Part shown: positions 926-24,579 of the stretch, piece after piece | Position numbering within the stretch: position 1 is the first letter of the stretch | How the letters are laid out: each line of letters opens with the position of its first letter | NCBI GenBank assembly: GCA_963771275.1 | Contig: CAVYSW010000009.1 | Location: 396,882-460,881, forward strand | Reading direction: 5' to 3' | DNA from: an uncultured Gemmatimonadales bacterium | Lineage (GTDB): Bacteria > Gemmatimonadota > Gemmatimonadetes > Gemmatimonadales > GWC2-71-9 | DNA length: 64,000 nucleotides | Made by a program: the position numbers and the translations under genes | The notes under the pieces: model-generated | Database searches by the model: none | The model's input: the letters and a program-made list of their open reading frames with translations, nothing else | What the model was told of the DNA's origin: nothing

Positions 926-936
926 GGTGTCGGTAG

Positions 937-2484: not shown

Positions 2485-2503
2485 CCGCGTCCGCTCCGTG
2501 GCC

Positions 2504-3715
2504 TCAGACCCCCGCCTCACCGCCGGGGTCTCGGAGCGTCGGCGCCGCCGTGGCCGCCCGGTCTGTCGCTGAGGCATCGGTGTTGACGAGCGTGGCACGC
2601 CGCCCGAGCCACGCCAGTACGGTCCCCAGCACGATCCCGACCAGATAGCCGTAGGGGAGCCCCACCGCCGTGAGTCCCACGAGCACCGTCACCGGGAAGT
2701 CGCGGCCAGACGGCGCGACGTCGCGCACGAGCCAGATGAGCCCCAACCCCTCGAACAGGAGCAGAACGCCGAGGACGGGGAGCGGGAAGGCCCGCACGAT
2801 CTGGTCCATGCCTGGCCCGAACAGCACGCCGAGGGTGACGAACACCGAACCGTAGATGACGACGGACCCGCCGGTCCGGCCGCCGAAGGTGTAGTGCCCC
2901 ACCATCCCGCCCGACCCGTGGCACGTCGGCACGCCTCCCAGCCAAGGATTGACGAGGTTCATCACGGCGTAGGTGAGCCCGATCTTGCGGATCGTGATCC
3001 GGCGCTCGGGGAACAGATCCTTGGCCAGCTGGTGGGTGGCGAGCACCGAGTTGCCCAGCGAGAGGGGGATCTGCGGCAGGGCGAGCAGCACGAAGCCGGT
3101 GGCGATGTCGGCGAGCCGAGGGATGTGCGTGGACGGGAGGTGCAGCCCTACACTCGCGGCCACGCTGTCGGGGTCCAACCGGAATGCCGCATACACCAGC
3201 CCGAGCGCCACGACGGGTAGGGCCGCCGGAAGCCGGCGACTTCCCAGCAGCAGCACCACCACAGTGAACGCGGCGCCGGCAAGCCAGTATCCAGATACGC
3301 CCTCCGCCCGCACGTAGTTCTGGAGCGCGATGCCCGCGAGCTGGAGGCCCAGGCCGAACTGAATCCCGCGCACCACGCTCTTGGGGATGACGCGTGCCAG
3401 CCAGGTAAGCAGGCCGGTGGACGCCAGGAGCAGCATGACGACGCCAATGGCGAGCCCGGCGCCGTACAGGACCGGCGCCGGCGTCTGCTGGGCGATGACG
3501 ATGGCGGCCATGGCCTTGAGCGGCTGGACCGGCATGGGCATGCGGTACACCAAGCCGGTCAGGATCTGCATGGCGCCGAACATGATCAGCACGCTGGCGC
3601 CGCCCAGCTGCGCGGCCAGGGCGACGCCGACCAGGAGGGGAACGTCGGTGCCCATGTCACCGAAGGCGCCGGCCAGCTCGTGGCGGTTGAAGCGGATGCG
3701 CGGGGGTGGGATCAT
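2504..3715 (-). CDS. Putative sulfate/molybdate transporter (MOT1 family)
   Basis: ELAGAFGDMGT, PMPVQPLKA and CHGSGGMVGHYTFGGRTG motifs; multiple TM helices; start taken at MIPPPR. Confidence 0.8.
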   Translation of the reverse strand: MIPPPRIRFNRHELAGAFGDMGTDVPLLVGVALAAQLGGASVLIMFGAMQILTGLVYRMPMPVQPLKAMAAIVIAQQTPAPVLYGAGLAIGVVMLLLASTGLLTWLARVIPKSVVRGIQFGLGLQLAGIALQNYVRAEGVSGYWLAGAAFTVVVLLLGSRRLPAALPVVALGLVYAAFRLDPDSVAASVGLHLPSTHIPRLADIATGFVLLALPQIPLSLGNSVLATHQLAKDLFPERRITIRKIGLTYAVMNLVNPWLGGVPTCHGSGGMVGHYTFGGRTGGSVVIYGSVFVTLGVLFGPGMDQIVRAFPLPVLGVLLLFEGLGLIWLVRDVAPSGRDFPVTVLVGLTAVGLPYGYLVGIVLGTVLAWLGRRATLVNTDASATDRAATAAPTLRDPGGEAGV

Positions 3716-8599: not shown

Positions 8600-9061
8600 A
8601 TGACGACCCGCTCGTCGGTCGCGCCCTCGGTGGCGGCCCGCCGCTTCGGCGCGCTTGCCGATCCCACCAGACTGCGGATCGTCACCCTCATGGTGCAGGG
8701 GGAATGGTGCGTGTGCGAGCTGGCCTCGGCGGTCGGCCTCGCGCAGCCGCTCGCCTCGTACCACCTGAGGGCGCTGCGACGGGCCGGATTCCTCCACGTC
8801 AGGCGCGAGGGTCGCTGGCACTACTACGCCTTGAACCGGGAGCAGTTCGAGGGGTGCCAGGCGTGGATTCGTAACACACTCGAAGGGATTGACGAATCCG
8901 CTCACCTCGGGCGGCGGTGCTGCAGCACTGGAGCAAGGCCCAACGTGCCTTCGGCACATGCCGAGGCTGTGGCCGACGTGATGCCGTTAGGACGGCGAGT
9001 CCCGACGAGAGACCCCTCCAGGGCACGGCGCCCCGACGCACGCGCCAGCACTGACAGCTAA
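8600..9061 (+). CDS. Second ArsR/SmtB-family regulator
   Basis: FGALADPTRLRI, EWCVCEL, ASYHLRALRRAG, RREGRWHYY and a C-terminal CC pair. Confidence 0.85.
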   Translation: MTTRSSVAPSVAARRFGALADPTRLRIVTLMVQGEWCVCELASAVGLAQPLASYHLRALRRAGFLHVRREGRWHYYALNREQFEGCQAWIRNTLEGIDESAHLGRRCCSTGARPNVPSAHAEAVADVMPLGRRVPTRDPSRARRPDARASTDS

Positions 9062-9069
9062 CTCCCGCC

Positions 9070-9107
9070 GTTACAACCTTGTAACCGGCTCGTGGCCGGC
9101 GCTTGAC
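9070..9107 (+). promoter_or_regulatory. Putative Pho box (11-bp-phased repeats) upstream of the GT4 operon
   Basis: GTTAC 9070, GTAAC 9081, GTGGC 9092, TTGAC 9103. Confidence 0.55.
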
Positions 9108-9129
9108 GAGCCGGGCACAAGCTACATCC

Positions 9130-10281
9130 GTGCACATAGCCCTCGTCACCGACACGTACACCCCCCAGGTGAACGGGGTGACGACCGTCGTGCGCCGCAT
9201 GGCACAGACGATCGCGCGCGCCGGCCATGCGTGCGCGGTGGTAGCGCCGCGTTACCCCGGTGACGGCGTCGCCCCTGCGCTGGAGCTGCGGCTCCCCTCC
9301 ATTCCGTTTCCTCCGTACCCCGCGATCCGCCTCGCGCTGATGGCCGGCGGGCCGGTGAGGCGGTACCTCGATGCCTTCGGTCCGGACATCGTGCACGTGG
9401 CCACCGAGGGACCGCTGGGCCTCGTCGGTCGAGGCTACGCGATCCGCCACAAGCTGCCGCTCGTGACCGCGTTTCACACGGACTTCCCGGGGTACTGCCG
9501 TCACTACCGCGCCCCGGGGCTCGAGCCCGCGGTGTGGCGCTGGCTCCTGTGGTTCCACCGCCCGGCACGCCTCACCCACACGCCCGGCGAGTTCGTGCGG
9601 GACAGGCTCATCGCAAAGGGGATCCACCAGGCCGTGGTATGGGGACGCGGGGTGGACACAGACCACTTCCGGCCCGACCGCGATCGCGCCCCGTGGCGCT
9701 GGCGCCTCGGGCTGCCGGCGGGGGCGGCGCTCGTGCTTCACGTGGGGCGCCTGGCGCCGGAGAAGAATCTCGAGACGCTCTGGGAATCGTGGGCGATCGC
9801 GCACGCGGCGCTCGGCGCGCGCGCGCAGTTCGTCGTGGCGGGCGACGGCCCCACAGCGGCACTCGTCCGCAGCCGGATGCCGTGGGCCACCCACCTCGGC
9901 TTCCTCAACCGCGAGACCCTGGCCGACCTGTACGCCGCCGCCGACCTCTGCGTCCTGCCCTCCGCAACCGAGACCTGCGGCCTCGTGGCGCTCGAGGCCA
10001 TGGCGAGCGGTGTGCCCGTCGTGGCCGCCGACGCGGGCGGCTTTCGCGAGAGCATCCGGCACGGCGTTACGGGCCTGCTCGCGCGGCCCAGGGACCCCGA
10101 GGCGCTCGCCGCCCACGTCATCCACCTCGCCATGGAGCGGGAGCGTCGCCTCGCCCTGGCGGCGGCGGCGCGGCGCTTCGCCCTGTCGCGCAGCGCCGCG
10201 CTCGACGACGCATCCCTGCTGGTGCAGTACCAGACCATCCTCGGGCACGATCTCCCGAAGGGAAGCGAATGCGCCGCGTAG
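9130..10281 (+). CDS. GT4 glycosyltransferase (Agt/MgtA-like glycolipid synthase)
   Basis: IALVTDTYTPQVNGV, DIVHVATEGPLG, VGRLAPEKN and ETCGLVALEAMASGVPV. Confidence 0.85.
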   Translation: MHIALVTDTYTPQVNGVTTVVRRMAQTIARAGHACAVVAPRYPGDGVAPALELRLPSIPFPPYPAIRLALMAGGPVRRYLDAFGPDIVHVATEGPLGLVGRGYAIRHKLPLVTAFHTDFPGYCRHYRAPGLEPAVWRWLLWFHRPARLTHTPGEFVRDRLIAKGIHQAVVWGRGVDTDHFRPDRDRAPWRWRLGLPAGAALVLHVGRLAPEKNLETLWESWAIAHAALGARAQFVVAGDGPTAALVRSRMPWATHLGFLNRETLADLYAAADLCVLPSATETCGLVALEAMASGVPVVAADAGGFRESIRHGVTGLLARPRDPEALAAHVIHLAMERERRLALAAAARRFALSRSAALDDASLLVQYQTILGHDLPKGSECAA

Positions 10282-11099
10282 CCATCGTCCTGGTGGACGG
10301 CCTTCGACCCGACGCGGTCGCGCTCGCCCCGATGCCGGCATTGGACCGGCTCGGCAAGGACCATGTGCGCGCCCTCGGCGCGGCCACCATCCGGCCGAGT
10401 GCCACCGTGGCGGCGCTCGCGACGTTGGCCACCGGCCTGAGCCCCGCCGCTCACGGCCTGATGGAGCCCGGGCTGCACTTCCTCCGACGGCTCGGCGGAC
10501 TCCGGCCCCTTCCCGCCGAGCTGGCGCGGCACGCCCTCCCGACCACCGTCGTCACTACCCGCTTGCCGGGCCCGGCTCTCGCGATCGCGCAGGCACTCAC
10601 CGCATTCGCGGGAATCCGTCACTTCGTCGCTGCTGGCCGGACGGCGCTCGAGACGGCGCTCACCGCCCGGGAGTGCTTCGAACGGATGGACGCCGGGCTG
10701 TTGTTCGTCTATCTCCCGGACTGCGACCGCACCGGCCACCGTGCCGGCTGGATGTCCTCCGCGTACCTGCGGAGCGCCGCCGACGTCGATGGCGCCCTCG
10801 ACCTGTTCACCCAGGGGCTCGGCGACGGGACCGTCTTCGTGCTCGCCGACCACGGCGGTGGCGGCGTGTATCCCCGCGACCACGACCTGCCGCACCCGGC
10901 GAACGACCACATTCCGCTCGTCGTCGCCGGTCGCTCGACCCGCCGGCGCTGCGTGCTCCCCGAGCCGGTGTCCATCCTCGACGTCCCGGCCACCGTGCTC
11001 TGGCACCTCGGCCTCGCCGTCCCGGAGACGTACGAGGGACGCGTGCTGCGCCACGCCTTCCTCGCGACGTCACTCGGGGCAGAGGTAGCCGCGGCATGA
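10269..11099 (+). CDS. Alkaline phosphatase superfamily / nucleotide pyrophosphatase-phosphodiesterase-like enzyme
   Basis: IVLVDGLRPD, PSAT (Thr nucleophile position), DxxGH, ADHGG, IPLVVAG and SILDVPAT; no signal peptide. Confidence 0.8.
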   Translation: MRRVAIVLVDGLRPDAVALAPMPALDRLGKDHVRALGAATIRPSATVAALATLATGLSPAAHGLMEPGLHFLRRLGGLRPLPAELARHALPTTVVTTRLPGPALAIAQALTAFAGIRHFVAAGRTALETALTARECFERMDAGLLFVYLPDCDRTGHRAGWMSSAYLRSAADVDGALDLFTQGLGDGTVFVLADHGGGGVYPRDHDLPHPANDHIPLVVAGRSTRRRCVLPEPVSILDVPATVLWHLGLAVPETYEGRVLRHAFLATSLGAEVAAA

Positions 11100-11524
11100 T
11101 GCGCCTGCTCACGCATCTGGGCGGAGCCCGGACAACGTTGGGGATCGGGCTGGCCCTGGTTCTGCTCGGAGATCGAACGGTCGGGCTCGCGGTCTTGCTC
11201 GCCAACGCGGCGTCGCACGTCGTCGTGCAGCTGCTCAAGCGTCTGGTGGCGCGCCCGCGGCCCTGCGACGGTTTCGGCCGGCCCCTGGCCCTGGTCGCGC
11301 TGCCGGACCCGTTCTCGTTTCCCTCCGGGCACGCCGCCGCGGCCACGGCCGTGGCCGCCACGGTGGCCTTCGCCCATCCACTGCTCGCCCCCGTGGTCCT
11401 CCCCCTCGCCGCGCTCGTCGCCGCGTCCCGGGTCACGCTACGCGTGCATCACGCGGGCGACGTCGTGGCCGGCGCGCTGCTCGGGCTGGCGGGGGCGCTC
11501 CTCGCCATCCGGCTCCTCCTCTAG
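11096..11524 (+). CDS. PAP2-family membrane phosphatase
   Basis: KRLVARPRP, FSFPSGHA and SRVTLRVHHAGDV catalytic motifs; hydrophobic. Confidence 0.9.
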   Translation: MMRLLTHLGGARTTLGIGLALVLLGDRTVGLAVLLANAASHVVVQLLKRLVARPRPCDGFGRPLALVALPDPFSFPSGHAAAATAVAATVAFAHPLLAPVVLPLAALVAASRVTLRVHHAGDVVAGALLGLAGALLAIRLLL

Positions 11525-11564
11525 CTCCGGGAGTCCATCTCTCCACAACCCGGAATGTGGAGTA

Positions 11565-11613
11565 CTGACAGGGTCGTTACGGACTCGCGCTACGCGCGTC
11601 ATGCAATCGTTAC
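11565..11613 (+). promoter_or_regulatory. Putative Pho box upstream of the TonB-dependent receptor
   Basis: CTGAC 11565, GTTAC 11576, GTCAT 11598, GTTAC 11609, all in 11-bp phase. Confidence 0.55.
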
Positions 11614-11715
11614 GGCCGGCACCGAGGCTTCCCTTGCTCGGCCGGCGCGCACGCGTGGGGCCTGCCCGCCGCCGAGCCCGAGATCACCTGCGGGCCCCAG
11701 GGACGCGACACACGT

Positions 11716-14523
11716 ATGGCACGTTCGATCCGCGGCGCGGCACTCGGACTCCTGTTCGCGGCGCTGTTGCTGGAGGGCCTCGCACTCTCGCCGAGGCTGC
11801 TCCTTGCCCAGGCGCAGGTCAGGACCATGGGACGTATCACGGGCCGCGTCATCAGCCAGGAGACGGGTCAGCCTGTCCAACGGGCGGAAGTGCACGTTGC
11901 CGGGACCAGCCTCCAGGCGCTCACCGACCTGAACGGACGGTACTTCGTCCCGAACGTCCCACCGGGCGCTCAGAACATCGAGGTCCGGCAGGTCGGCTTC
12001 ACGTTCAAGACCGTGACCAACGTGCTCATCACGGAGGACGAAACGACCGTGCTCGACGTCGCGCTCTCGTCCGCGACATTCGCCGTGGAAGCGATCACCG
12101 TGACCGCGCAGGTCGAGCGGGGCACGGTCGCCCGCGCGCTCGAAGAACAGCGCACTGCCCTGAACATCGTGAACGCGCTCAGCGCCGAGCAGATCGCGAA
12201 GACCCCCGACGCCGACGCCGCGGAGGCGGTGCGGCGAGTGAGCGGGGTCACGGTGCAGGACGACAAGTACGTGTTCGTGCGCGGCCTGGGCGAGCGCTAC
12301 ACCACCACCTCCCTCAACGGCGCGCGACTCCCCAGCCCCGAGCCGGAGAAGCGGGTGGTCCCGCTCGACCTGTTCCCGTCGAGTCTCCTGGAGTCCATTT
12401 CCACGTCGAAGACCTTCACCCCCGACCAGCCTGGGGACTTCAGCGGGGCGGAGGTGAACCTCCGGACGCGCACGTTCCCCGTGAATCACCTGCTGCAGTT
12501 CTCGCTGTCTGGTGGGTACAACAGCCTGGTGACGGGCCGGGATGTCCCCGCGCCGCCCACGACAGGCCGAGAATGGCTGGCCATGGCGGCCGGGCAGCGC
12601 CAGCTCCCCACGCAGCTCACCGGCATCACGGATTTCTCGCAGCTCACCCAGAACGACATCAACGCCCTGATCCGCACGCTGCCGCGCCGGTGGACGGTCG
12701 ACCAGGGCAGCGGGCCGCCCAATGTCTCGGGGAGCCTCTCGTTCGGGGGCGAGGATCCGGTCCTGGGATTGCATCTCGGCTACGTCGGGTCGCTGTCGTA
12801 CTCCCGGAGCGAGCAGTTGCGCAAAGGGGAGATCCGCGCGCGCGCGGTCCCCCGCGACAGCACGGGCGTTCCCGCGCCCTACAACACGTTCACGGGCAGT
12901 ACGGGACAGAGCAGCGTGCTCTGGGGCGGGCTGCTGAACCTGAGCGCCCTCATCGGGCACGCCACCAAGATCGAGCTGAACAACACGTACGACCGCACGG
13001 CCGACAACTCGGCGCACCAGGACTGGGGCACGCTGGAGGAGTTCCAGCAGGTGGACAGCGTGCGGCGCACCCAGCTGCAGTACGTGGAGCGCTCCGTGCG
13101 GTCCAATCAGCTCCGGGCGACCCACCAGTTGGGCGCTCATAACCTCCTGATGTGGTCGGTGACCTCTTCGGGCGTGACGCGCGCCGAGCCCGATCGCGCC
13201 GACCTGGCCTACGGCTATGAGCTGTCCGCCACCGGAGAGCGACTTCCGCTGGCTTGGTTGGGCTTCATTCCCGAGGCGGCCAAGCGCACCTCGTCCCAGC
13301 TTGCGGAGGACGCGCTGGGCGGCGACCTGGACTACGCGCTCTCCGTCGGCTCGCCCGAGCGGCCGGTGACGTTCAAGGTCGGTGGAGCTTATCGTCACAC
13401 CAAGCGCGACGCCCACTCGGTGTCCTACAACGTGCGCGCGCTTGGCTTGGGCGCCGCCGCTCGCGCCGCCGGGCCGGACTCGCTGTTCTATGGCGCGTTC
13501 ACCAACCCCGACTCCGCGCGCGTCACGCTCGAGCCGAACAATAGCGGCGGCACCTATCAGGCAAGGGACCGGGTATCCGCCGGGTACCTCATGGCGGAAA
13601 TCCCGCTGGGCGGCCGGCTCACCATCATGGGCGGCGCCCGGCTGGAGCGGTGGGCCCTCGACATGGATGCCGAGCCCGTCAGTCGGGGGACGGTCGCCAT
13701 CACGCGCCGGAATACCGACGTGCTGCCGTCGTTGGCCGTGAACGCGAAGCTGAGTCGGGACCAGACGCTGCGGCTGTCCGCCACGCAATCCCTGGCCCGG
13801 CCTGAGTACCGCGAGCTGGCCCCTGTGAGCTACCGCGACATGGTCGGCGAACGCGAGGTGTTCGGCGACTCCAGCCTCGTTCGCACCCTGGTCCAGAACT
13901 ACGACGCACGGTGGGAGTGGTACCCCAATCCGAACGAGGTGGTCAGCGTCGCCGTGTTCGCGAAGCGCTTCGACCATCCGATCGAGCAGATCGACGTCGC
14001 CACCTCGGGCGCATCCCAGCTGAGCTTCATCAACGCCGAGTCGGCGGTCAACTACGGCATCGAGCTAGAGCTCCGCAAGGGACTCGGGTTCCTGGGTCTG
14101 TGGCCGCTCGCCCTCTTCAGCAACGGCACCCTGATGCGGAGCCGCATCAACACCAGCAACAGCAACCTCTCGGCGCTCACGAATGACCAGCGGCCCATGG
14201 TGGGGCAGGCGCCGTACGTGGTGAACGCCGGTCTCTCCTATGAGAGCCTGTCCGGCGCGACCAGCGCCACGCTGCTCTACAACGTCGTGGGGCCGCGCAT
14301 CACCTCGGCCGCCGTCACCCCACTCACCGTCGACACCTACGAGCGGCCCCGTCACGTACTGGACTTCTCGTTCCGCTTCGCCGTCTACGGCGGGATGACC
14401 GCGAAGCTCGACGCCAAGAACCTGCTCGACGCCGCGTACGAAGAACGACAAGGGGACGTCATCCGCTACCGCTACACCACGGGGCGCTCGTTCAGTCTCG
14501 GTGTGAATTGGCGCCTGCAGTAG
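11716..14523 (+). CDS. TonB-dependent receptor with N-terminal carboxypeptidase-regulatory-like domain
   Basis: Signal peptide; ITGRVI...TDLNGRY; plug domain AAEAVRRVSGV..VRGLGERY...LNG; barrel ending GRSFSLGVNWRLQ. Confidence 0.92.
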   Translation: MARSIRGAALGLLFAALLLEGLALSPRLLLAQAQVRTMGRITGRVISQETGQPVQRAEVHVAGTSLQALTDLNGRYFVPNVPPGAQNIEVRQVGFTFKTVTNVLITEDETTVLDVALSSATFAVEAITVTAQVERGTVARALEEQRTALNIVNALSAEQIAKTPDADAAEAVRRVSGVTVQDDKYVFVRGLGERYTTTSLNGARLPSPEPEKRVVPLDLFPSSLLESISTSKTFTPDQPGDFSGAEVNLRTRTFPVNHLLQFSLSGGYNSLVTGRDVPAPPTTGREWLAMAAGQRQLPTQLTGITDFSQLTQNDINALIRTLPRRWTVDQGSGPPNVSGSLSFGGEDPVLGLHLGYVGSLSYSRSEQLRKGEIRARAVPRDSTGVPAPYNTFTGSTGQSSVLWGGLLNLSALIGHATKIELNNTYDRTADNSAHQDWGTLEEFQQVDSVRRTQLQYVERSVRSNQLRATHQLGAHNLLMWSVTSSGVTRAEPDRADLAYGYELSATGERLPLAWLGFIPEAAKRTSSQLAEDALGGDLDYALSVGSPERPVTFKVGGAYRHTKRDAHSVSYNVRALGLGAAARAAGPDSLFYGAFTNPDSARVTLEPNNSGGTYQARDRVSAGYLMAEIPLGGRLTIMGGARLERWALDMDAEPVSRGTVAITRRNTDVLPSLAVNAKLSRDQTLRLSATQSLARPEYRELAPVSYRDMVGEREVFGDSSLVRTLVQNYDARWEWYPNPNEVVSVAVFAKRFDHPIEQIDVATSGASQLSFINAESAVNYGIELELRKGLGFLGLWPLALFSNGTLMRSRINTSNSNLSALTNDQRPMVGQAPYVVNAGLSYESLSGATSATLLYNVVGPRITSAAVTPLTVDTYERPRHVLDFSFRFAVYGGMTAKLDAKNLLDAAYEERQGDVIRYRYTTGRSFSLGVNWRLQ

Positions 14524-14549
14524 GAGGGAGCCGGTCGCTGCGGGTCCCC

Positions 14550-14576
14550 GTCACTCGATTGTTACCGCCACGTGAT
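14550..14576 (+). promoter_or_regulatory. Putative Pho box upstream of the FN3 lipoprotein
   Basis: GTCAC 14550, GTTAC 14561, GTGAT 14572. Confidence 0.5.
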
Positions 14577-14661
14577 CGGGCTCATACGCAGCCGTTCTAG
14601 GCTTTCCTCACTTCACGGACTAGGTGCCCCACACCGCACCGCAACCAGGAGACCCGAACCG

Positions 14662-16353
14662 ATGAGATCGTTCACGCGTAGCCTCCTTGCCCCGGCCGGC
14701 GCCGTTCTGCTCCTGGGCTGGCTGGCGGCCTGCAGCGACACCACCAACCCGGCGTTGACCGCGCCGACCGGCGTGACCGCCGTCGCCACCTCGGCCACGT
14801 CGGTACAGGTGACGTGGAACCAGGTGACCGGCGCCGATAGTTACGCGTTGGACCGGGCGGAAGGCGCCGGCGCTTTCGCCAACGTGGGGACGGGATTGAC
14901 CAGCACGCACTACGACGACACCGGCCTCCAGCCCAGCACGGATTACCGCTACCAGGTGCGCGCCGCGCAGGGCACGACCGAGAGCGCGAGCAGCAGCGAA
15001 GCCTCCGCCACGACTCCCGCGGTGGGCGCCAAGGTGGCCACGGTCACCGGCGTCCCGCTCAGCCGGACGTTCTACGCCGACACCACCTACATCCTCCAGG
15101 GGTACGTGAAGGTGAGCAACGGCGCCACGCTCACCATCCAGGCCGGCACCACGATCGTGGGCGACACCCTCGTCACGGGCAGCTCCCTGTGGATCCTGCG
15201 CGGGTCGAAAATCATGGCCAACGGGACGGTGGATGCGCCGATCGTGTTCACGTCGCAGCGCTCCTCGCCCAACCGCAAGCCGGGGGACTGGGGCGGGCTC
15301 ATCGTTGTGGGGAACGCGCTCATCAACCGGACGGCCAACCCGATCTTCACCGAGGGCCCCGCCGGCGCGGCAGAGAACTACGCCGGCGGCACCGACCCGA
15401 ACGACAACTCCGGCGTCCTCAAGTACGTGCGGGTCGAGTTCGCGGGGTACGATGTCTCGAACGGCGGTGGGCAGGAGCTGAACAGTATCTCCAGCTACGC
15501 CGTGGGACGCGCCACCACGTACGACTACGTGCAATCGATGGCCGGCCTGGACGACGGGTTCGAGTCATTCGGCGGCGGATATGACATGCGCCACATGGTC
15601 TCGTTCGAAGAGGGCGACGACCATTTCGATTGGACGGAAGGCTACCAGGGCCGTGGCCAGTTCCTGATCGCGCTCCAGACCTCGGTGCTCACGCCGCGTC
15701 CCGGGACGGGCACCACGTCGAGCGATCCCCGCGGCTTCGAGGGCGACGGCTGCGAGAGCGACAAGGCGGGATGCACGTTCTCCAACACCCCGTACTCCAT
15801 GCCCGTGTGGGCCAACTTCACCGTGGTGGGGCCGGGCACGGGCGTCTTCTCGACGACCGACGGCAATGGGGCGGTGGTCCGGCGCGGCGCGGCGGCCAAT
15901 TTCGTGAACGGCATCATCGCCCGCTGGCCGGGCGTGGGCATCAGCGTCCGCGACACGGCCAGCAGGAACCGGATGGACCAAGACTCGCTCTACGTCCGCA
16001 ACGTCGTCCTCGCGGAGAACGGGAGCAACTTCGAGCCGGCGGGCCCGAACTTCGGGTCCGTGCTGAGCGACAGCGCCACCGTCTGGGACATCACCACGAG
16101 CACGCTGGCAGCCCTGTTCACCGGCGCGCTTCCCGTCGGCGCCACCACGGTGACCACCGCGAACCTCAACATCGGTCTGGCGGCCGGCGCGGCGGCCAGA
16201 ACGGGCGGGCTCGGCGCGTTCCCCGCCATTCTGTCCGCGCGGGTGCAGAACTTCTTCGGCGGTGCGATGCCGGCCACCGCCTACATCGGCGCGGTCGATC
16301 CGTCGGCGGGCACCCAGTGGTTCGAGGGCTGGACGAACTGGGCACGGAACTAG
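14662..16353 (+). CDS. Lipoprotein with fibronectin type III domain and beta-helix-like C-terminal domain (TonB-receptor partner)
   Basis: Lipobox LAAC; FN3 (APTGVTA..VTW..YDDTGLQPSTDYRYQVRA); PIVFTS, GDWGGLI, NSGVLKYVRVEFAG, DDGFE and W..GWT motifs. Confidence 0.75.
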   Translation: MRSFTRSLLAPAGAVLLLGWLAACSDTTNPALTAPTGVTAVATSATSVQVTWNQVTGADSYALDRAEGAGAFANVGTGLTSTHYDDTGLQPSTDYRYQVRAAQGTTESASSSEASATTPAVGAKVATVTGVPLSRTFYADTTYILQGYVKVSNGATLTIQAGTTIVGDTLVTGSSLWILRGSKIMANGTVDAPIVFTSQRSSPNRKPGDWGGLIVVGNALINRTANPIFTEGPAGAAENYAGGTDPNDNSGVLKYVRVEFAGYDVSNGGGQELNSISSYAVGRATTYDYVQSMAGLDDGFESFGGGYDMRHMVSFEEGDDHFDWTEGYQGRGQFLIALQTSVLTPRPGTGTTSSDPRGFEGDGCESDKAGCTFSNTPYSMPVWANFTVVGPGTGVFSTTDGNGAVVRRGAAANFVNGIIARWPGVGISVRDTASRNRMDQDSLYVRNVVLAENGSNFEPAGPNFGSVLSDSATVWDITTSTLAALFTGALPVGATTVTTANLNIGLAAGAAARTGGLGAFPAILSARVQNFFGGAMPATAYIGAVDPSAGTQWFEGWTNWARN

Positions 16354-16372
16354 CGACGGGTTCGGTCACCGC

Positions 16373-16410
16373 GGACGGCCGGGGCGCAGGACTGCCCCGG
16401 CCGTCCCTTT
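16373..16410 (+). terminator. Rho-independent terminator-like hairpin
   Basis: 13-bp stem GGACGGCCGGGGC / GCCCCGGCCGTCC followed by CTTT. Confidence 0.55.
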
Positions 16411-16440
16411 CCCGCTCGAGGAGACGGGGGTCGGGATAGC

Positions 16441-17024
16441 ATGAGACACCACTGGCTGGCAGCGCTCACCCTTGCGGTGGCATGCAACGCGCATTCCGAG
16501 AACCACGAAACCGTCGCCGGCAACGTGACCGACAGCGTCCTCCCGATGGATGTGATGCTGGACCGCTTTCGGCACGACCTGCCTCGGCCGGCGGAGCTGC
16601 ACGGCGGGCTGGCGAACCGCGACAGCCTCGTCCGCCGCGTGATCGCCGCGCTCGAGACGAGCGACACGCTGGCGTTCGAGCACCTCGCGGTGAACCGGGG
16701 TGAATGGGCGTGGCTGTACTTCCCCAGCAACGTCCTCTCCCGCCCACCGTACGAGCTGCCGCCAGGGCTCGCCTGGTTCCAGCTGCAGGAGACGAACCGG
16801 CAGGGCGTGTTCCGCGCCTTGCGGGAGTTCGGCGGCCACCAACTCGACTACCGCGGGTATCGCTGCAACACCGAGCCCACCATTGAGGATGCAAACCGGA
16901 TCTGGGCCGGCTGTACCGTCACGCTGGGGCGGGACGGCGCCCCCCCGCGCCCGTCCGCCTGTTCGGCGCCGTCCTCGAGCGACGGGGCCGCTTTCTCATT
17001 CTCAGCTACACCAACGACTTCTGA
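16441..17024 (+). CDS. Hypothetical lipoprotein (1-nt frameshift in C7 run 16940-16946)
   Basis: Lipobox AVAC; adding one C gives a protein-like C-terminus APVRLFGAVLERRGRFLILSYTNDF* at 17024 instead of the low-complexity tail of the ORF track. Confidence 0.6.
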
Positions 17025-17085
17025 ACCCGCCGAGCCTTCAACATGTTGCCGAAAGCGTAGTTAGACGGTCGGCGTCCGGGCCAGC

Positions 17086-17183: not shown

Positions 17184-18263
17184 ATGATGATGCCCCGAAT
17201 GCGATGGCTCCCGGCCGCGGTCGCGCTGATCGGCACCGCGTGCGGCGGCCGTGGCAAGCCCACTGTCCTCCTCAACGGCGCCGGCGCCACGTTTCCCAAC
17301 ATCATCTACCAGCGCTGGATCACCGACTACAACGCGGCGCACGCCGGCGTCGAGCTCAACTACCAGTCCATCGGGTCGGGCGGCGGAGTGCAGCAGTTCA
17401 TGGACGGCACCGTGGACTTCGGGGCCAGTGACGGCCCGATGGCGGACGAGGAGATCGCGAAGGTCGGCGGCAACGTGCTCCACGTTCCCACGGTGCTGGG
17501 CGGCGTGGTACCGGCCTACAACCTCCCCGGTGTCACCCAGACCATCCGATTCACGCCCGATGTGCTGGCGGACATCTTTCTTGGCGCGATCACCCGGTGG
17601 GACGACGTCCGGATCCGGAGCGCCAACCCCGGCGTTACCCTCCCCAACCGCGCGATCGTCGTGGTCCATCGCTCCGACGGGTCGGGCACGACCTACATCT
17701 GGACGGACTACCTCACTGTGGTCAGCGAGACCTGGGCCGGGCGGGTCGGGCGCGGGCGCGCGGTCAACTGGCCCGTCGGTATCGGCGGCCGCGGCAACGA
17801 GGGCGTCGCCGCCGCCATCACGCAGACCCCGGGCGCGCTGGGCTACGTCGAGCTGGGGTACGCCCTGATCAACAAGATGCCGGTGGGGGCGGTCCGGAAC
17901 CGGTTCGGCAACTTCGTGACGCCCGACTTCTCCACCGTCTCGGCGGCCGCCGCCGGCGTGGTCGATGCCCTCGGCCCGGACACCGATTTCCGCATCAACC
18001 TGATCGACGGCCCGGGGGAGCGGACGTATCCCATCTCGTCTCTCACCTGGCTGCTGGTCAAGCGGGACTACGGAACGGCCGGGGCCAAGGCCCGCGAGCT
18101 GGTGCAGTTCATATCATGGGCCCTCACCGAAGGCCAGGCCACGGCCCCCCAGCTTGGCTACGCGCCGCTCCCGGCCGGGCTCGTGCCGCTGGTCGAGGCG
18201 CGTCTCCGGACGATCACGGCCGGGGGGCAACCGGTGTGGACGGGCCCGGCGGCGGCCAGGTAG
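17184..18263 (+). CDS. pstS: Phosphate ABC transporter substrate-binding protein PstS (lipoprotein form)
   Basis: LNGAGATFP, YQSIGSGGG, VDFGASD, HRSDGSGTT, YPISSLTW; lipobox GTAC. Confidence 0.95.
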   Translation: MMMPRMRWLPAAVALIGTACGGRGKPTVLLNGAGATFPNIIYQRWITDYNAAHAGVELNYQSIGSGGGVQQFMDGTVDFGASDGPMADEEIAKVGGNVLHVPTVLGGVVPAYNLPGVTQTIRFTPDVLADIFLGAITRWDDVRIRSANPGVTLPNRAIVVVHRSDGSGTTYIWTDYLTVVSETWAGRVGRGRAVNWPVGIGGRGNEGVAAAITQTPGALGYVELGYALINKMPVGAVRNRFGNFVTPDFSTVSAAAAGVVDALGPDTDFRINLIDGPGERTYPISSLTWLLVKRDYGTAGAKARELVQFISWALTEGQATAPQLGYAPLPAGLVPLVEARLRTITAGGQPVWTGPAAAR

Positions 18264-19246
18264 CCCCGGCCGCCGTCACCGGAGGTCAGCCGGGGGGGCG
18301 GAGAGCCCGACCGCGCCTCCGCGGGACGGCCCGGAGCGACCGCCTCTTCCGTGGCGCGCTCACGGCGCTCGCCGCCGTGGTGCCGCTCCTGTTCCTGGCG
18401 CTGGCCGGCCTGCTCGCCGTCCTCGCCTGGCCGACGATCCGCGCGTTCGGCTTCCGATTCCTCACGACGTCCACCTGGGACCCGGTGGCCAACGTGTACG
18501 GCGCGGCCCCGATGATCTTCGGGACCTTGCTCTCGTCCTTCGTCGCACTCCTCCTGGCGGTCCCCCTGGCCGTCGGCGTCGCGATCTACCTCACGGAGTT
18601 CGCCCCCGGCTGGCTGCGACGCCCCGTCGGCACCCTCGTCGAGCTCCTCGCCGCCATCCCGAGCGTGGTGTACGGCCTGTGGGGCATCTTCGTGCTGATT
18701 CCCCTGCTCCGCACCTACGTGATCCCGCCGCTCCAGGCGGTCCTCGGCTGGACCCCGTTCTTCTCCGGCACGTTCTACGGCAATTCGATGCTGGCCGGCG
18801 GGGTCATTCTCGCCATCATGATCCTGCCCTACATCAGCTCGGTGAGCCGCGAGGTCCTCGCCGCGGTGCCCCCGTCGCAGCGGGAGGCCGCCCTGGCCCT
18901 CGGCGCCACCCGCTGGGAGGCGGTCTGGTCGGCCGTGCTTCCCTACGCGCGGACCGGGGTCATGGGCGCCGTCGTGCTCGGCCTGGGCCGCGCGCTGGGC
19001 GAGACCATGGCCGTCGTCATGGTGATCGGGAACCGGCACGACCTGAGCGTGTCGCTGGTCGAGCCGGGCTACACCATGGCGGCCATCATCGCCAACGAGT
19101 TCAACGAGGCGGCGGGCCTGCAGCGCGCCGCCCTGTTTGAGATCGGGCTGGTGCTGTTCGGCGTGACCGTCGCCGTCAATGCGCTGGCCCGCCTGCTGGT
19201 GTGGCGCGTGGCACGCGACAGCGCGGTCGGGAGCCGCGCCATATGA
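18236..19246 (+). CDS. pstC: Phosphate ABC transporter permease PstC
   Basis: WDP...[49 protein letters not shown]; start codon uncertain (GTG 18236). Confidence 0.92.
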   Translation: MDGPGGGQVAPAAVTGGQPGGRRARPRLRGTARSDRLFRGALTALAAVVPLLFLALAGLLAVLAWPTIRAFGFRFLTTSTWDPVANVYGAAPMIFGTLLSSFVALLLAVPLAVGVAIYLTEFAPGWLRRPVGTLVELLAAIPSVVYGLWGIFVLIPLLRTYVIPPLQAVLGWTPFFSGTFYGNSMLAGGVILAIMILPYISSVSREVLAAVPPSQREAALALGATRWEAVWSAVLPYARTGVMGAVVLGLGRALGETMAVVMVIGNRHDLSVSLVEPGYTMAAIIANEFNEAAGLQRAALFEIGLVLFGVTVAVNALARLLVWRVARDSAVGSRAI

Positions 19247-20088
19247 TCGCGCGCACCGCCCGCCGCCGGCTGTTCAGCCGGTTCATGACCGGACTCACCG
19301 TGCTGGCGGCGGTGATCGCCCTGGCGCCCCTGTTCGCCATCTTCGCCGATCTCGTGCTGCGCGGCGCCTCGAGCCTCAACGTCGACTTCTTCGTGAAGAA
19401 CCCGGCCGCCGCCGGGCAGACCGGCGGTGGGGTGGCGAACGCCATCGTCGGCACGCTCATTATCGTGGGGCTCGCCGCCGCCATCGGGTTGCCAATCGGG
19501 ATCGGGGGGGGCGTCTACCTCGCGGAATACGGCGGCGGCGGGTTCGGCACGGTCGTGCGGTTTCTCGCCGACGTGCTGAACGGCACGCCGTCGGTCATCG
19601 TTGGGATCTTCGCGTGGACCTGGATCGTGCGCCCGATGGGCCACTTCTCCGCGGTTGCGGGCGCCCTGGCCCTGGCGGTGCTCATCATCCCCATGGTTAC
19701 ACGCACCACCGAGGAGATGGTGCGCCTGGTCCCGCACTCGCTGCGCGAGGCCGCCCTCGCGCTGGGGTTCCCGCGCTGGCGCGCCACGGCGAAGATCATG
19801 GTGCGGGCCGCCTGGCCCGGCATCGTGACCGGGGCGCTCGTCGCCGTCGCCCGCGTCGCCGGCGAGACGGCGCCCTTGTTGTTCACCGCGCTCGGCAATC
19901 TCAACTTCAAGACCGACGTCATGCAGCCGATGCAGACGTTGTCGCTGCAGATCTACGTGTTCGCCACCGGCCCGTTCGAGGAGTGGCACCGCCTCGCCTG
20001 GGGCGCCGCTCTGGTGCTCATGGGAATCGTCTTGCTGGTGGGAATCGCCGCTCGGCTGGCCACGCGCACCCGGTTCCGCGATGGCTGA
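19243..20088 (+). CDS. pstA: Phosphate ABC transporter permease PstA
   Basis: [45 protein letters not shown]. Confidence 0.95.
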
Positions 20089-20848
20089 GCCGGCCGCGCC
20101 GCTCCGCACCGAGCAGATCACCGCCCTGTTCGGCGACAAGGCGGCGGTGAAGGACGTGACGCTCCATTTCCCGGGGAATACGGTGACGGCGATCATCGGG
20201 CCGTCGGGCTGCGGCAAGAGCACCTTCCTGCGCTGCCTCAACCGGCTGCACGAGCTGTCGCGCGGCGGGAGCGTCCGCGGCCAAGTGCTGCTCGACGGCG
20301 AGGACATCTACCACCCGGCGGTGAATCCGGTCGACGTCCGGCGGCGCATCGGGATGGTGTTCCAGCAGCCGAATCCGTTCCCGACGATGTCGATCTACCA
20401 CAACGTGGCGGCGGGGCTCACCGTGAACGGCCGCCGGTCGCGGGCCGAGACCGCCGCCGCCGTGGAGCGTGCACTCAAGAGCGCCGCGCTGTGGGACGAG
20501 GTCAAGGACCGCCTGCGGGCGAGTCCGCTGGCGCTGTCGGGCGGGCAGCAGCAGCGCCTCTGCATCGCTCGGACCATCGCCCCCGAGCCCGAGGTGATCC
20601 TGCTGGACGAGCCGACGTCCGCGCTGGACCCGATCGCGACGCAGTCGATCGAAGAGCTCGTGCAGGAGTTGAAGCGCACCTTCACCGTGGTGATCGTAAC
20701 GCACAACATGCAGCAGGCGGCCCGCGTCTCCGACTACACGGCGTTCCTGTACCTCGGGGAGCTGGTCGAGCGCGGCGACACGACGACCCTGTTCACCGCG
20801 CCCCGCGAGCAGCGCACCGAGGCGTACATCACGGGACGGTTCGGGTGA
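20081..20848 (+). CDS. pstB: Phosphate ABC transporter ATP-binding protein PstB
   Basis: [43 protein letters not shown]. Confidence 0.95.
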
Positions 20849-21600
20849 CGGCGGCCGTCGAGATCCGGGACTTCGGGTTCTGGTACGGCCGCACGCAGGC
20901 GCTCAGGGCGATCTCGCTGGCCGTGGCGCCGGGCCAGATCACGGCGTTCATCGGCCCGTCGGGCTGCGGCAAGAGCACGCTGCTCCGCGCGATCAACCGG
21001 ATGAACGAGCTGCTGCCCGGCACCCGACACGAGGGCGACGTGCAGCTGTTCGGCAAGTCGGTGTACGCGCCGACGGTCGACGTCGTGGGGCTGCGCCGCC
21101 AGATCGGGATGGTATTCCAGAAGCCCAATCCGTTCCCCAAGACGATCTTCGACAACGTGGCGTACGGCCCCAGCGTCAACGCGCTGTGCGGCGCCGCCGA
21201 GCTGCCGGATCGGGTGGAGCACGCCCTCAAGCGCGCCGCGCTGTGGGACGAGGTGGTCGACCGGCTCGACGAGCTCGGCACCGGGCTCTCCGGCGGTCAG
21301 CAGCAGCGGCTCTGCATTGCGCGCGCCCTGGCCAACGATCCAGAGATCCTGCTCCTCGACGAGCCGTGCTCGGCGCTCGACCCGATCGCGACGCAGCGGA
21401 TCGAGGAGCTGCTGGTCGAGCTCAAGCAGGAAGTCACCATCGTCATCGTCACCCACAACCTGCATCAGGCCGCGCGCATCGCGGATGACGCGGCGTTCTT
21501 CTACCTTGGTGAGTTGGTGGAGTTCGGCCGGGCCGAGGACCTCTTTACCCGCCCGCGCGAAAAACGGACGGAAGCCTACGTGACCGGGAGATTCGGATGA
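20845..21600 (+). CDS. pstB: Second PstB ATP-binding protein
   Basis: Same motifs ([41 protein letters not shown]); GTG start overlaps the previous stop. Confidence 0.95.
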
Positions 21601-22274
21601 CGGGCACCCCCCATCGCCATTTCCACGACGAACTGGCCCGCCTCAAGGACCGGCTGCTCCAGATGTCGGCCCAGGCCCAGGACGCGCTCGACCGATCCGT
21701 GCGGGCGGTGCTGCAGCGGGACGCTCCGGCGGCCGACCGCGTGCTGCGGGAGGACCGCCAGATCGACGCCCTCGAAGTCGAGATCGAGGAGATGGTCACC
21801 AACCTCCTGGCGCTGCACCAGCCGATGGCACGGGACCTCCGCCTGATCCTGTCCGCGCTCAAGATCTCCAACGATCTCGAGCGCGTGGGCGACCATGGAG
21901 CCAATATCGCGGGCTGCGCGCAGCGATTGCTCGACCAGCGGCCCATCACGCCGGAGCCCGAGATCGTCGAGATGGGCCGGCTGGCCCGCGGCATGCTGGC
22001 CGACGCGATCGACGCATTCGTGCGGGGCGATGCCGCCCTCGGCCGCGACGTCTGCGGCCGGGACGATCAGGTGGATGCCCTGCACCGCTCGGTCTTCCGC
22101 ATCTTGCTCACCCACATGGCGGAGGACCCGCACACGATCGGGGCCGCCATGGAGCTGTTCCTCGTGAGCCGCAACCTCGAGCGGGTGGCGGACCTCGCCA
22201 CCAACGTCGCCGAAGACGTGGTGTTCCTCGTTGAGGGCAAGAGCATCAAGCACGGCGCCGAGTTGCAGCAGTAG
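21597..22274 (+). CDS. phoU: Phosphate signalling protein PhoU
   Basis: [33 protein letters not shown] repeats. Confidence 0.95.
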
Positions 22275-22286
22275 AACCGGGACGCA

Positions 22287-22309
22287 CCGGGGGGCGGGCA
22301 CCCCCCCGG
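22287..22309 (+). terminator. GC hairpin downstream of phoU
   Basis: CCGGGGGG / CCCCCCGG stem; weak U-tract. Confidence 0.35.
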
Positions 22310-22370
22310 ACCCCCATATACCCCTTTTCCCGGGATTCCTCCGCCCTCCCCCCCCGTACCGGCAGGCGTC

Positions 22371-22408
22371 GATACACGACCGTTACAACGCTGACACGCT
22401 CGCGTTAT
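22371..22408 (+). promoter_or_regulatory. Putative Pho box upstream of porin-pstS2
   Basis: GATAC 22371, GTTAC 22382, GACAC 22393, GTTAT 22404 at 11-bp period. Confidence 0.55.
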
Positions 22409-22487
22409 CGCATCCGGTGAATCTGCTCACTCGGGGTGCGGATCACCGGCCCCTCGACCATCCCCCAACCGAAGGAATCGCCCTGTG

Positions 22488-23510
22488 ATGGACCGGAATC
22501 GACGCTGGATGTTCGCCGGGCTCGGGGCAGTCCTGATGCTCGCCTCCCAGGCAGGACCGGCGGCGGCACAGGGCGTGACCGTGGGCGGGTTGGCCTACGG
22601 CCAGTACCTCTACCAGCTCAAGGACACGGCGGGCCACGCCAACAGCTTCTCCATTCAGCGCGCCTACATCAACGTCGTCGGCAAGTTCAACGACGGGCTG
22701 GTCGCCCGGATCACGCCGGACGTGTACACCCAGACGGACGGCTCCATCGTGCTCCGGCTCAAGTACGCCTACGCCGCCTATACCCCCGGGAACGGTCCCC
22801 TGACCTTCAAGCTCGGCCTGATCCACACGCCGTGGCTCGACTGGGCGGAAGGCGTGTGGGACTACCGGATGCAGGGCACGATGTCTCCCGAGCGGAACGG
22901 CTACATCACCTCGTCGGACCTGGGGTTCGGCGTGGACGGCGCGTGGGGCAAACAGATGGTCAACATGCAGGTCGGCCTCTACAACGGCGAGGGCTACCAC
23001 GGCGGCACCGGCGACAAGCGCAAGGACGTGATGGGGCGCGTTTCGGTGCGGCTGCTCTCCACGGATGACGCGGGCGGCCGCGGTGGACTGCGGCTCACCG
23101 CCTACGGGCAATACGGCAAGCCGACGGGCGGCGGGAAGCGAACGCGCCTGATCGGGATGCTCTCCTACAAGCGCAGTCTCGTCACGCTGGCAGCCGAGGG
23201 CACCATCGCCCAGGACTCCTCCACCACGACACCCTCGCCCGACGTCACCGGCCGCGTGCTGAGCGGCTTCGGGGTCTTCAACATCCCCAATACGAAGGCC
23301 GCCCTCGTCGCCCGGGTGGATCTCGCCGATCCGGACAAGGATGTGACTGGAGATTCACAGACCCGTTTCATCGGCGGCGTTTCGTACATGCCGCACCCGC
23401 ACCTGCGGCTCCTCGCCAACCTGGACTACCTGCACTACCAGGGGACGCCCACGCCGGCTCAGGAAGCGGGCCGGGCGCAGGCGCTGTTCCAGATGGAATT
23501 CACGTTCTGA
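22488..23510 (+). CDS. Outer-membrane beta-barrel porin (phosphate porin-like)
   Basis: Signal peptide ending AAA-Q; FSIQRAYIN, RLKYAY, YNGEGY; C-terminal F; directly upstream of pstS2. Confidence 0.7.
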   Translation: MDRNRRWMFAGLGAVLMLASQAGPAAAQGVTVGGLAYGQYLYQLKDTAGHANSFSIQRAYINVVGKFNDGLVARITPDVYTQTDGSIVLRLKYAYAAYTPGNGPLTFKLGLIHTPWLDWAEGVWDYRMQGTMSPERNGYITSSDLGFGVDGAWGKQMVNMQVGLYNGEGYHGGTGDKRKDVMGRVSVRLLSTDDAGGRGGLRLTAYGQYGKPTGGGKRTRLIGMLSYKRSLVTLAAEGTIAQDSSTTTPSPDVTGRVLSGFGVFNIPNTKAALVARVDLADPDKDVTGDSQTRFIGGVSYMPHPHLRLLANLDYLHYQGTPTPAQEAGRAQALFQMEFTF

Positions 23511-23529
23511 CCCACGCGGGAGGACTTCT

Positions 23530-24579
23530 ATGAGACTGACACGGCTGATCCCCGCCATCGCGGCGGCCTGCGTTGCATCGCCCGCGGCGGCTCAGGTGCT
23601 GCTGAATGGTGCCGGCGCGACGTTTCCCAACATCATCTACCAGGACTGGATCATCGCCTACAACAAGGCGACGGCGGGCGTCGAGCTGAACTACCAGTCG
23701 ATCGGCTCGGGCGGCGGCATCCAGCAGTTCACGGCCGGCACGGTGGACTTCGGCGCGAGCGACGCCCCGATGTCCGACCAGGAAATCGCGGCCGTGAGCG
23801 GCAACGTGATCCACATCCCGACCGTGCTCGGCGCGGTGCTGCCGACGTACAACCTGCCGGGGGTTGCCGGAGCCCTGAAGTTCAGCCCGGCGGTGCTGGC
23901 CGACATCTACCTCGGCAAGATCACGAAGTGGAACGACCCGCGGCTCGCCGCCCTCAACCCGGGAATGAAGCTCCCGGATCTCGGCATCGCGGTGGCCCAC
24001 CGTTCCGACGGGTCGGGGACCACGTTCATCTTCACCGACTACCTCTCCAAGGTGAGCCCGGAGTGGTCGGCGAAGGTCGGGACGGGCAAGTCGGTGAACT
24101 GGCCCGCGGGAATCGGCGCCAAGGGCAACGAGGGCGTCTCGGCGACGGTGAGCCAGACCCCGGGCGCGATCGGCTACATCGAGCTGGGCTACGCGATGAT
24201 CAACAAGCTCCCCGTGGGCGCCGTGCAGAACAAGTCCGGGAAGTTCATCACACCCACGATCGCGAGCGTGACGGCGGCGGCGGCGGGGGCCATGAAGCAG
24301 ATGGGGCCTGAAACCGATTTCCGCGTGTCGATCGTCAACCCCGACGGCGCGGACGCCTACCCGATCGCGAGCTTCACGTGGCTGTTGCTCCACAAGCAGT
24401 ACGACGACGCCACCAAGGCCGGCGCGCTCGCCAGGTTCGTGTGGTGGGCGGAGACCGACGGCCAGGCCCGCTGCGCCGATCTGGGGTACGCACCGCTGCC
24501 CACGGCGATGCAGCCGTGGATCCAGGCTCGGCTCAAGAGCATCACGGCACAGGGCCGTCCGGTCTGGGCAAGCCGCTAG
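23530..24579 (+). CDS. pstS: Second PstS (soluble periplasmic form)
   Basis: LNGAGATFP, YQSIGSGGG, HRSDGSGTT, YPIASFTW; Sec signal ending PAAA-Q. Confidence 0.95.
   Translation: MRLTRLIPAIAAACVASPAAAQVLLNGAGATFPNIIYQDWIIAYNKATAGVELNYQSIGSGGGIQQFTAGTVDFGASDAPMSDQEIAAVSGNVIHIPTVLGAVLPTYNLPGVAGALKFSPAVLADIYLGKITKWNDPRLAALNPGMKLPDLGIAVAHRSDGSGTTFIFTDYLSKVSPEWSAKVGTGKSVNWPAGIGAKGNEGVSATVSQTPGAIGYIELGYAMINKLPVGAVQNKSGKFITPTIASVTAAAAGAMKQMGPETDFRVSIVNPDGADAYPIASFTWLLLHKQYDDATKAGALARFVWWAETDGQARCADLGYAPLPTAMQPWIQARLKSITAQGRPVWASR

Follow-up and report, generated by a model that had tools for sequence, protein, structure and literature searches.

A window of 64,000 nucleotides (the whole stretch of DNA analysed; G000:C9:396882-460881) from a 3.86-Mb genome (G000, 96.7% complete), whose relatives are Gemmatimonadales, carries a three-gene operon within the Pho cluster of that genome. 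The genes encode a GT4-family glycosyltransferase (GT4), an enzyme of the alkaline phosphatase superfamily (AP) and a small PAP2 lipid phosphatase (PAP2). Conserved and preceded by a Pho box, this trio most likely represents a genuine variant of the bacterial replacement of phospholipids by glycolipids, and one of its enzymes belongs to an uncharacterised subfamily. The reading as a whole, in which PhoB activates the operon and its products swap phospholipids for phosphorus-free glycolipids without PlcP, is favoured with some reserve. Its minimal form, a Pho-controlled glycolipid pathway made of PAP2 as the source of diacylglycerol (DAG) and GT4, is predicted with good confidence, and AP would be an add-on to this module.

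Operon structure and Pho box

Table 1. Features of the operon and its surroundings (window positions)
Feature	Position	Strand	Remarks
GT4 glycosyltransferase, Agt/MgtA clade	9130..10281	+	383 aa, GTG start; PF13439+PF00534
AP, cytoplasmic cap-less NPP-like AP-superfamily enzyme	10269..11099	+	276 aa; PF01663
Small PAP2 lipid phosphatase, predicted phosphatidate phosphatase	11096..11524	+	142 aa; PF01569
Pho box array, four half-sites, 11-bp period	9069..9108	+	GTTAC 9070, GTAAC 9081, GTGGC 9092, TTGAC 9103
TonB-dependent receptor, FN3 lipoprotein, small exported protein	11716..17064	+	Pho-box-like sites before first two
pstS-pstC-pstA-pstB-pstB-phoU, porin, second pstS	17184..24579	+	presumed names, from sequences

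The first-pass annotation had described three overlapping, coupled genes behind a Pho-box-like repeat, and this was confirmed: GT4, AP and PAP2 are open frames that overlap by 13 nt (GT4/AP) and 4 nt (AP/PAP2), and the repeat consists of four half-sites. By eye, the array, with its GTTAC at -63 to -65, was found in 28 of 28 co-oriented ortholog upstream regions compared. A matrix was made from 23 of these regions (five duplicates were dropped; the window itself was excluded) and applied to the 3453 genes of G000: pstS ranked first, the trio GT4 second, the FN3 lipoprotein third, a porin fourth and phoB 15th. The Pho-box repeat before the trio is well beyond chance.

The fourth half-site, TTGAC, is invariant at the -35 position in the 28 orthologs (window 9103-9132). 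In the window and in these orthologs a -10-like hexamer lies approximately 6-7 nt before the GTG/ATG start, and there is no ribosome-binding site. Since the distance to the start codon is short and fixed, the trio mRNA is probably leaderless, as a conserved trait. A scan of 8900-11800 for sigma-70 promoters and terminators found none.

Glycosyltransferase

The trio GT4 is 37.6% identical to Agt2 and 36.4% identical to Agt1 of Pseudomonas aeruginosa, which were recognised through their plcR and plcP neighbours. These enzymes make monoglucosyldiacylglycerol and glucuronic acid diacylglycerol (MGDG/GADG) (PMC8528852). The BLAST scores were 192 bits against Agt2, 155 against Agt1 and 233 against a PAP2-linked enzyme of Bacillus mycoides; against nine named Agt/MgtA-type references they ranged from 142 to 233, whereas those against the other GT4s of G000 were at most 89. 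In a quick, midpoint-rooted tree, the trio GT4 groups with the Agt/MgtA-type enzymes; the clustering with lipopolysaccharide (LPS) or exopolysaccharide (EPS) transferases that would have contradicted the first-pass annotation was not seen. Seven of the eight other GT4s of G000 form a separate clade (support 100), and the remaining one, with a very long branch, is placed at the midpoint root. On the basis of its clade and neighbours, GT4 is predicted to be a DAG glycosyltransferase.

These comparisons bear on two other explanations. One is that the genes serve unrelated envelope functions: an LPS/EPS glycosyltransferase and an undecaprenyl-diphosphate or lipid A phosphatase would be clustered in the Pho region by co-regulation only. 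The best NCBIfam matches of PAP2 are of this kind, namely undecaprenyl-diphosphatases and LpxE (51.6, 32.7 and 24.6 bits, all far under cut-off). However, the difference between the two ranges of GT4 scores and the alternation of PAP2 with PlcP, described below, make this explanation very improbable.

The other is that GT4 glycosylates a phospholipid, that is, phosphatidylglycerol (PG), phosphatidylglycerophosphate or a phosphatidate-derived one, after which AP or PAP2 would remove or transfer phosphate on the glycosylated product, akin to head-group modification of the GpgS type. The top NCBIfam match of GT4 is indeed the glucosaminyl-PG synthase NF053787 (139.5 bits), and clusters of GT4, a second GT4 and DUF2334 with the same PAP2 occur in relatives. 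Nevertheless, the cut-off is 480, far above this score, and P. aeruginosa Agt2 reaches a similar value (135 bits). Unlike GpgS, a GlcNAc-PG synthase whose gpgSDF system has deacetylase and flippase partners (PMC12713373), the trio contains neither partner. In addition, orthologous GT4s stand directly behind plcP. Glycosylation of a phospholipid is therefore considered improbable.

Conservation and exchange with PlcP

A close AP ortholog was found in 16 of 60 relatives, and in 15 of the 16 it adjoins a GT4. Among the matches listed, 40 further loci have a GT4 adjacent in 37 cases and PAP2 in 34; three of the 40 come from genomes that had been counted before, and contig ends account for one of the GT4 misses and two of the PAP2 misses. 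By name, Gemmatimonadota account for 34 of the 40, five are named "bacterium" only and one "Alphaproteobacteria". The clusters obtained from the ESM Atlas were of Gemmatimonadota and Bacillota only and have automatic names. The gene order varies: GT4>AP>PAP2, GT4 divergent from AP>PAP2>second GT4, and PAP2 and AP flanking GT4. The linkage survives rearrangement, which points to a shared function.

The same 301 genomes of the phylum were scanned for all four proteins. AP gave 68 matches, from which six distant ones (E 1e-49 to 1e-53) were dropped to leave 62 close ones; PlcP gave 6, the PAP2 subfamily 128, and the GT4 ortholog 86 at a cut-off of E<=1e-133 (a stricter first look; the contig-cut or frameshifted G033 and G178 are excluded). 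Both AP and PAP2 are present in 54 of the 86 GT4-ortholog genomes, so the expectation that the trio would be conserved together held. Another 26 have PAP2 only, three have PlcP with neither, one has AP only (G299, where AP is at a contig edge) and two have GT4 alone. PAP2 is present in 60 of the 62 AP genomes. None of the six PlcP genomes has a close PAP2, and none has AP. In two of them (G199 and G252) plcP is directly upstream of the orthologous GT4. This means that PAP2, not AP, exchanges with PlcP as the alternative partner of GT4, as two sources of DAG would. AP is an optional but nested part of the module: it is absent from 26 of the 80 genomes with GT4 and PAP2, and hence PlcP can be replaced without it. 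The first-pass proposal that AP and PAP2 together replace PlcP is thus supported in part, for PAP2, whereas AP is optional.

A search of G000 with P. aeruginosa PlcP gave no match at E<=0.001. Nine PF00149 matches are present, none of them PlcP-like, and the nearest resembles LpxH. Weak PlcP matches (25-39% identity) in 25 of the 60 relatives were likewise taken as LpxH-like rather than as PlcP. Phospholipase C of the PF04185 family was not found in G000, and PLDc_2 and GDPD matches were. Since G000 showed no SqdB-like motif either, a role in sulfolipid synthesis was discounted, though only weakly.

Two other arrangements were observed. In G024, G217 and G159 (L053:2222-3304, L152 and L153) plcP is followed by an MJ1255/VC2487-like glycosyltransferase (PF13528), not by Agt; the TIGR00661 match of this protein, tested for L053 only, is under cut-off. 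PAP2-GT4-DUF2334-GT4 clusters (L184:4818-8543 and L167:8041-11709) adjoin phoBR or the module, and Ralstonia L052 is similar. These might represent a second branch for a deacetylated amino-sugar lipid.

PAP2

The catalytic motifs C1, C2 and C3 of PAP2 are intact (K48-x6-RP, PSGH and SR-x5-H-x3-D), and the subfamily carries the signature D-x-FSFPSGH. Because PAP2 exchanges with PlcP, phosphatidate is its presumed substrate. In 17 of 17 GT4-linked PAP2s, 5-15 lysine and arginine residues were counted on the active side versus 0-3 on the other. Of the controls for this charge test, YbjG gave 1 versus 8, as expected, and PgpB failed with 18 versus 6, probably because the counted segments took in its extra N-terminal part. 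The counts only suggest that the active site of the GT4-linked PAP2s faces the cytoplasm, which the two-step route described below would need. The PAP2s of the co-oriented layout are without the N-terminal basic helix of approximately 30 residues, having 142 residues versus about 172 in the other GT4-linked PAP2s.

Structure of AP

The AP model (predicted local distance difference test score 89) is a single soluble domain. The metal ligands D10, D153, H157, D194, H195 and H205 and the nucleophile T46 are invariant in 66 of 66 rows. The subfamily is marked by R154, G196-G199 (an invariant GGGG), H209 and a hydrophobic helix at 99-116. AP opens straight into the first β strand, and no leader was seen in the full-length orthologs compared, so the absence of a signal peptide from the first-pass annotation was borne out.

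The closest folds, which are tied, are those of the Xanthomonas nucleotide pyrophosphatase/phosphodiesterase (Xac NPP; Z 27.7, rmsd 2.6) and human ENPP7, alkaline sphingomyelinase (Z 26.9, rmsd 2.7), with 254 residues aligned for both. Sulfatases come just behind, and LtaS gave a Z of 24.1. In the model, AP is the NPP core minus the cap. It shares the fold, the six metal ligands and the Thr nucleophile with the NPP family (Xanthomonas NPP, ENPP7, ENPP6 and autotaxin), in which lipid substrates are precedented for ENPP2/6/7. Unlike this family, AP is predicted to be cytoplasmic, is approximately 110 residues shorter (276 versus 383) with neither cap insert nor leader, lacks an equivalent of Asn111, which binds a non-bridging oxygen, and has the invariant GGGG and the second His209. 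The phosphoform transferases LtaS, MdoB and EptA have an N-terminal membrane domain and an exported catalytic domain; in contrast, AP consists of its one soluble domain. AP would offer a natural "minimal core" of the alkaline phosphatase superfamily that is small, soluble and well modelled and whose active site is altered.

AP was compared with a sister set of 94 AP-core domains, taken from 104 full-length proteins among the best 150 representatives after 10 without the ligands were dropped. Lys-x-Lys (K98/K100), present in 69%/62% of the sisters, is lost in AP, as is His50 (82% of the sisters) in the AP subfamily. R154 and H209 are gained; R154 is 95% conserved and lies next to a metal ligand. 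The segment 99-116 is more hydrophobic (grand average of hydropathy +1.03 versus -0.24), and the segment 64-120 is more positively charged (net charge +3.9 versus +0.5). In PafA, K162 and R164 confer a preference for monoesters (bioRxiv 10.1101/2020.11.24.383182). The Lys-x-Lys of the sisters may be equivalent to this pair, matched by position and not by residue-level alignment. If so, its absence would mean that AP leans to diesters at the membrane surface.

Several metal ligands are replaced in the AP relatives P0147, P0160 and P0164, which are possibly inactive paralogs. In G026 (L046:8939-9771) a frameshift splits the AP ortholog in two pieces, and GT4 and PAP2 are intact.

Linkage of AP to glycosyltransferases

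AP is connected with DAG glycosylation in three independent ways, through the GT4 operons, through a GT4-AP fusion and through GT28 neighbours. The natural fusion (P0125, 702 residues) has three members on three contigs, and its GT4 comes from another lineage. A search among longer proteins for more fusions gave three Ig-like-domain proteins only, which are not fusions (weak evidence), and the DNA context of P0125 was not recovered from the metagenome contigs. The GT28 neighbours of AP are MGDG-synthase-like genes (PF06925), one in G311, where the genes overlap, and one in G215, where PAP2 is also present; these two GT28 proteins are only 32% identical to each other. Solo AP orthologs at L040:4558-5382, L113 and L133 are upstream of what are presumably queC/queE-like genes, outside lipid clusters.

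Proposed mechanism

PhoB would bind the four-half-site box, which is observed, and drive the three genes. PAP2 would dephosphorylate phosphatidic acid to DAG and inorganic phosphate (Pi), and GT4 would glycosylate DAG with a UDP-activated sugar (glucose or glucuronate). AP might be a two-metal phosphodiesterase at the membrane surface that opens existing phospholipids for this module: with AP, old phospholipid could be dismantled, and without it only new phosphatidate would be diverted. The probability that AP is a phospholipid phosphodiesterase seems to be slightly below even.

In D-type cleavage, AP would produce phosphatidate and the head-group alcohol, and PAP2 would complete the reaction. 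This two-step route, in which AP takes the head group and PAP2 the phosphate, is proposed tentatively; it is favoured over C-type cleavage because AP is nearly always accompanied by PAP2, whereas PlcP never is. AP is possibly a new type of phospholipase. Its subfamily could, again tentatively, be an undescribed class of cytoplasmic bacterial phospholipases on a minimal alkaline-phosphatase core, converting PG and phosphatidylethanolamine to phosphatidate. Together with a cytoplasm-facing PAP2, it would take the place of PlcP in a two-step route from which phosphorus leaves directly as Pi and by which either GT4 or GT28 glycolipid synthases are supplied. A remodelling route through phospholipase D and phosphatidate phosphatase exists in plants. 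If the proposal is true, AP and PAP2 would be its bacterial counterpart, in a fifth of the sampled Gemmatimonadota genomes.

If AP were instead a C-type phospholipase, it would correspond directly to PlcP: its Thr would take the phospho-head group and leave DAG in one step, and PAP2 would act in parallel on new phosphatidate. ENPP7 acts in this manner on sphingomyelin, and MdoB/LtaS on PG. The chemistry of MdoB on PG is also described in PMC4796936. The tie of ENPP7 as best fold match and the Z score of LtaS are in line with such an activity, as are the lack of co-occurrence of AP with PlcP (0/6) and the position of AP beside DAG glycosyltransferases of two families. However, PAP2 should then become dispensable, as PlcP seems to make it, yet nearly all AP genomes keep it. 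C-type cleavage is accordingly unlikely.

It is also possible, though less likely than not, that AP acts on soluble by-products, namely uridine diphosphate (UDP) from the glycosyltransferase, or glycerophosphodiesters or head-group phosphates from the turnover of lipids. Pi would be recovered and product inhibition relieved, and DAG would in that case come solely from new phosphatidate via PAP2. Such a role would suit the optional nature of AP, and a UDP scavenger would be just as likely to be fused or linked to GT4 and GT28 alike. A nucleotide pyrophosphatase is the best match in both sequence and fold, the distant relatives P0236 and P0202 are fused to a glycerophosphodiesterase, and R154 could bind an oxygen of a monoester. 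On the other hand, the lost Lys-x-Lys and the hydrophobic, cationic helix suit a membrane substrate better. Furthermore, AP is present in none of the three genomes with PlcP and GT4, where UDP and head-group phosphates should likewise be set free, although this number is small.

Several observations weigh against the remodelling reading and AP's part in it. GT4 is only 36-38% identical to the characterised Agts, and the PgpB control failed. AP is missing from the 26 genomes mentioned above, and five AP loci (G028, L113, L133, G300 and contig C1 of G176) have no glycosyltransferase nearby. The three fusion members are identical at 698-700 of 702 residues and therefore represent one lineage. The NPP-type Asn, retained in Xac NPP and in 81% of the sisters, is gone: the equivalent position of Asn111 (position 67) is Pro in 67% and Asp in 24%, and the chemistry of AP may differ because of this loss. 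PlcP genomes are few (six in four genera; three with the GT4 ortholog, in two genera), three of them that were tested carry distant PAP2s (E 1e-19 or weaker), and G000 itself has eight PAP2 matches. Over the 301 genomes, the exclusion of PlcP and PAP2 has p = 0.04, with kin that are not independent, and that of PlcP and AP is not significant (p = 0.35). The anti-correlation with plcP that the first-pass annotation named as a check is seen for AP as a count (PlcP in 0/62 AP genomes), but it is PAP2 that alternates with PlcP.

Comparison with known systems

PlcP-Agt remodelling is known from Phaeobacter MED193, SAR11 HTCC7211, P. aeruginosa (PA3219/PA3218/PA0842) and B. cenocepacia (plcP-agt-dagK) (PMC4796936, PMC8528852, PMC13691135). 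The trio resembles these systems in its Pho-boxed GT4 of the same clade and in the predicted glycosyl-DAG product, and the ortholog lies beside plcP in two sister genomes. It differs from them in the absence of PlcP and of a dagK in the operon, in the small PAP2 from which DAG is predicted to come, and in the AP-superfamily add-on. Since PlcP is missing, the trio is not a member of the PlcP-Agt pathway.

Sebastian et al. named both DAG routes and proposed phosphatidate phosphatases for cyanobacteria that lack PlcP (PMC4796936); bacterial enzymes of this activity are described in Streptomyces (PMC3599759) and mycobacteria (PMC8225852). As in that route, PAP2 is predicted here to turn phosphatidate into DAG; unlike in it, PAP2 is operon-linked to an Agt-type GT4, Pho-boxed and accompanied by AP. 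Independence of PlcP is thus not new as an idea, and of the possibly undescribed phospholipid swap in the first-pass annotation it is the AP arm that was not found in the literature searched. In that literature, which did not cover subscription papers and supplements, neither the trio nor a PAP2 linked to Agt nor the present AP subfamily was found described, and PAP2 is unmentioned in the relevant passages of PMC13691135 and PMC11828411. Among the stretches fetched, B. mycoides, Acinetobacter baumannii and Ralstonia wenshanensis have the same PAP2 subfamily next to a related GT4, without AP; no paper characterising these pairs was found.

The marker used in surveys of lipid remodelling in bacteria is plcP (PMC4796936). 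In the 301 genomes plcP was found in 6, versus 80 with GT4 and PAP2; a plcP-based census would therefore overlook most Gemmatimonadota as phosphorus-sparing. Gemmatimonadota are a common group in soil and sediment.

Neighbouring genes

The block of TonB-dependent receptor, FN3 lipoprotein and exported protein behind the trio adjoins GT4 in several relatives (several genera), and might be an uptake system for a phosphorus compound. Ranks 5, 6 and 9 of the Pho-box scan are before TonB/ExbD-like genes (G000:C6:106368-107907 and C9:268235-268696), which might energise the Pho-boxed receptor. The names given for the pst-phoU genes, the porin and the second pstS are presumptive and were assigned from the sequences.

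The context in relatives is phoBR-GT4-AP-PAP2-pst, with phoR immediately next to the promoter of GT4. In G000, phoB-phoR are upstream of the window, and an island of approximately 16.3 kb (G000:C9:389607-405950, to window 9069) with metal and arsenic genes splits phoR from the GT4 promoter. The island contains ArsR regulators, a cation-efflux-like gene, thioredoxin-like genes and arsenic-resistance-like genes, which we take to be ArsA/ArsD/Acr3-like. Some of its frames, at window 900-2650, appear to be frameshifted.

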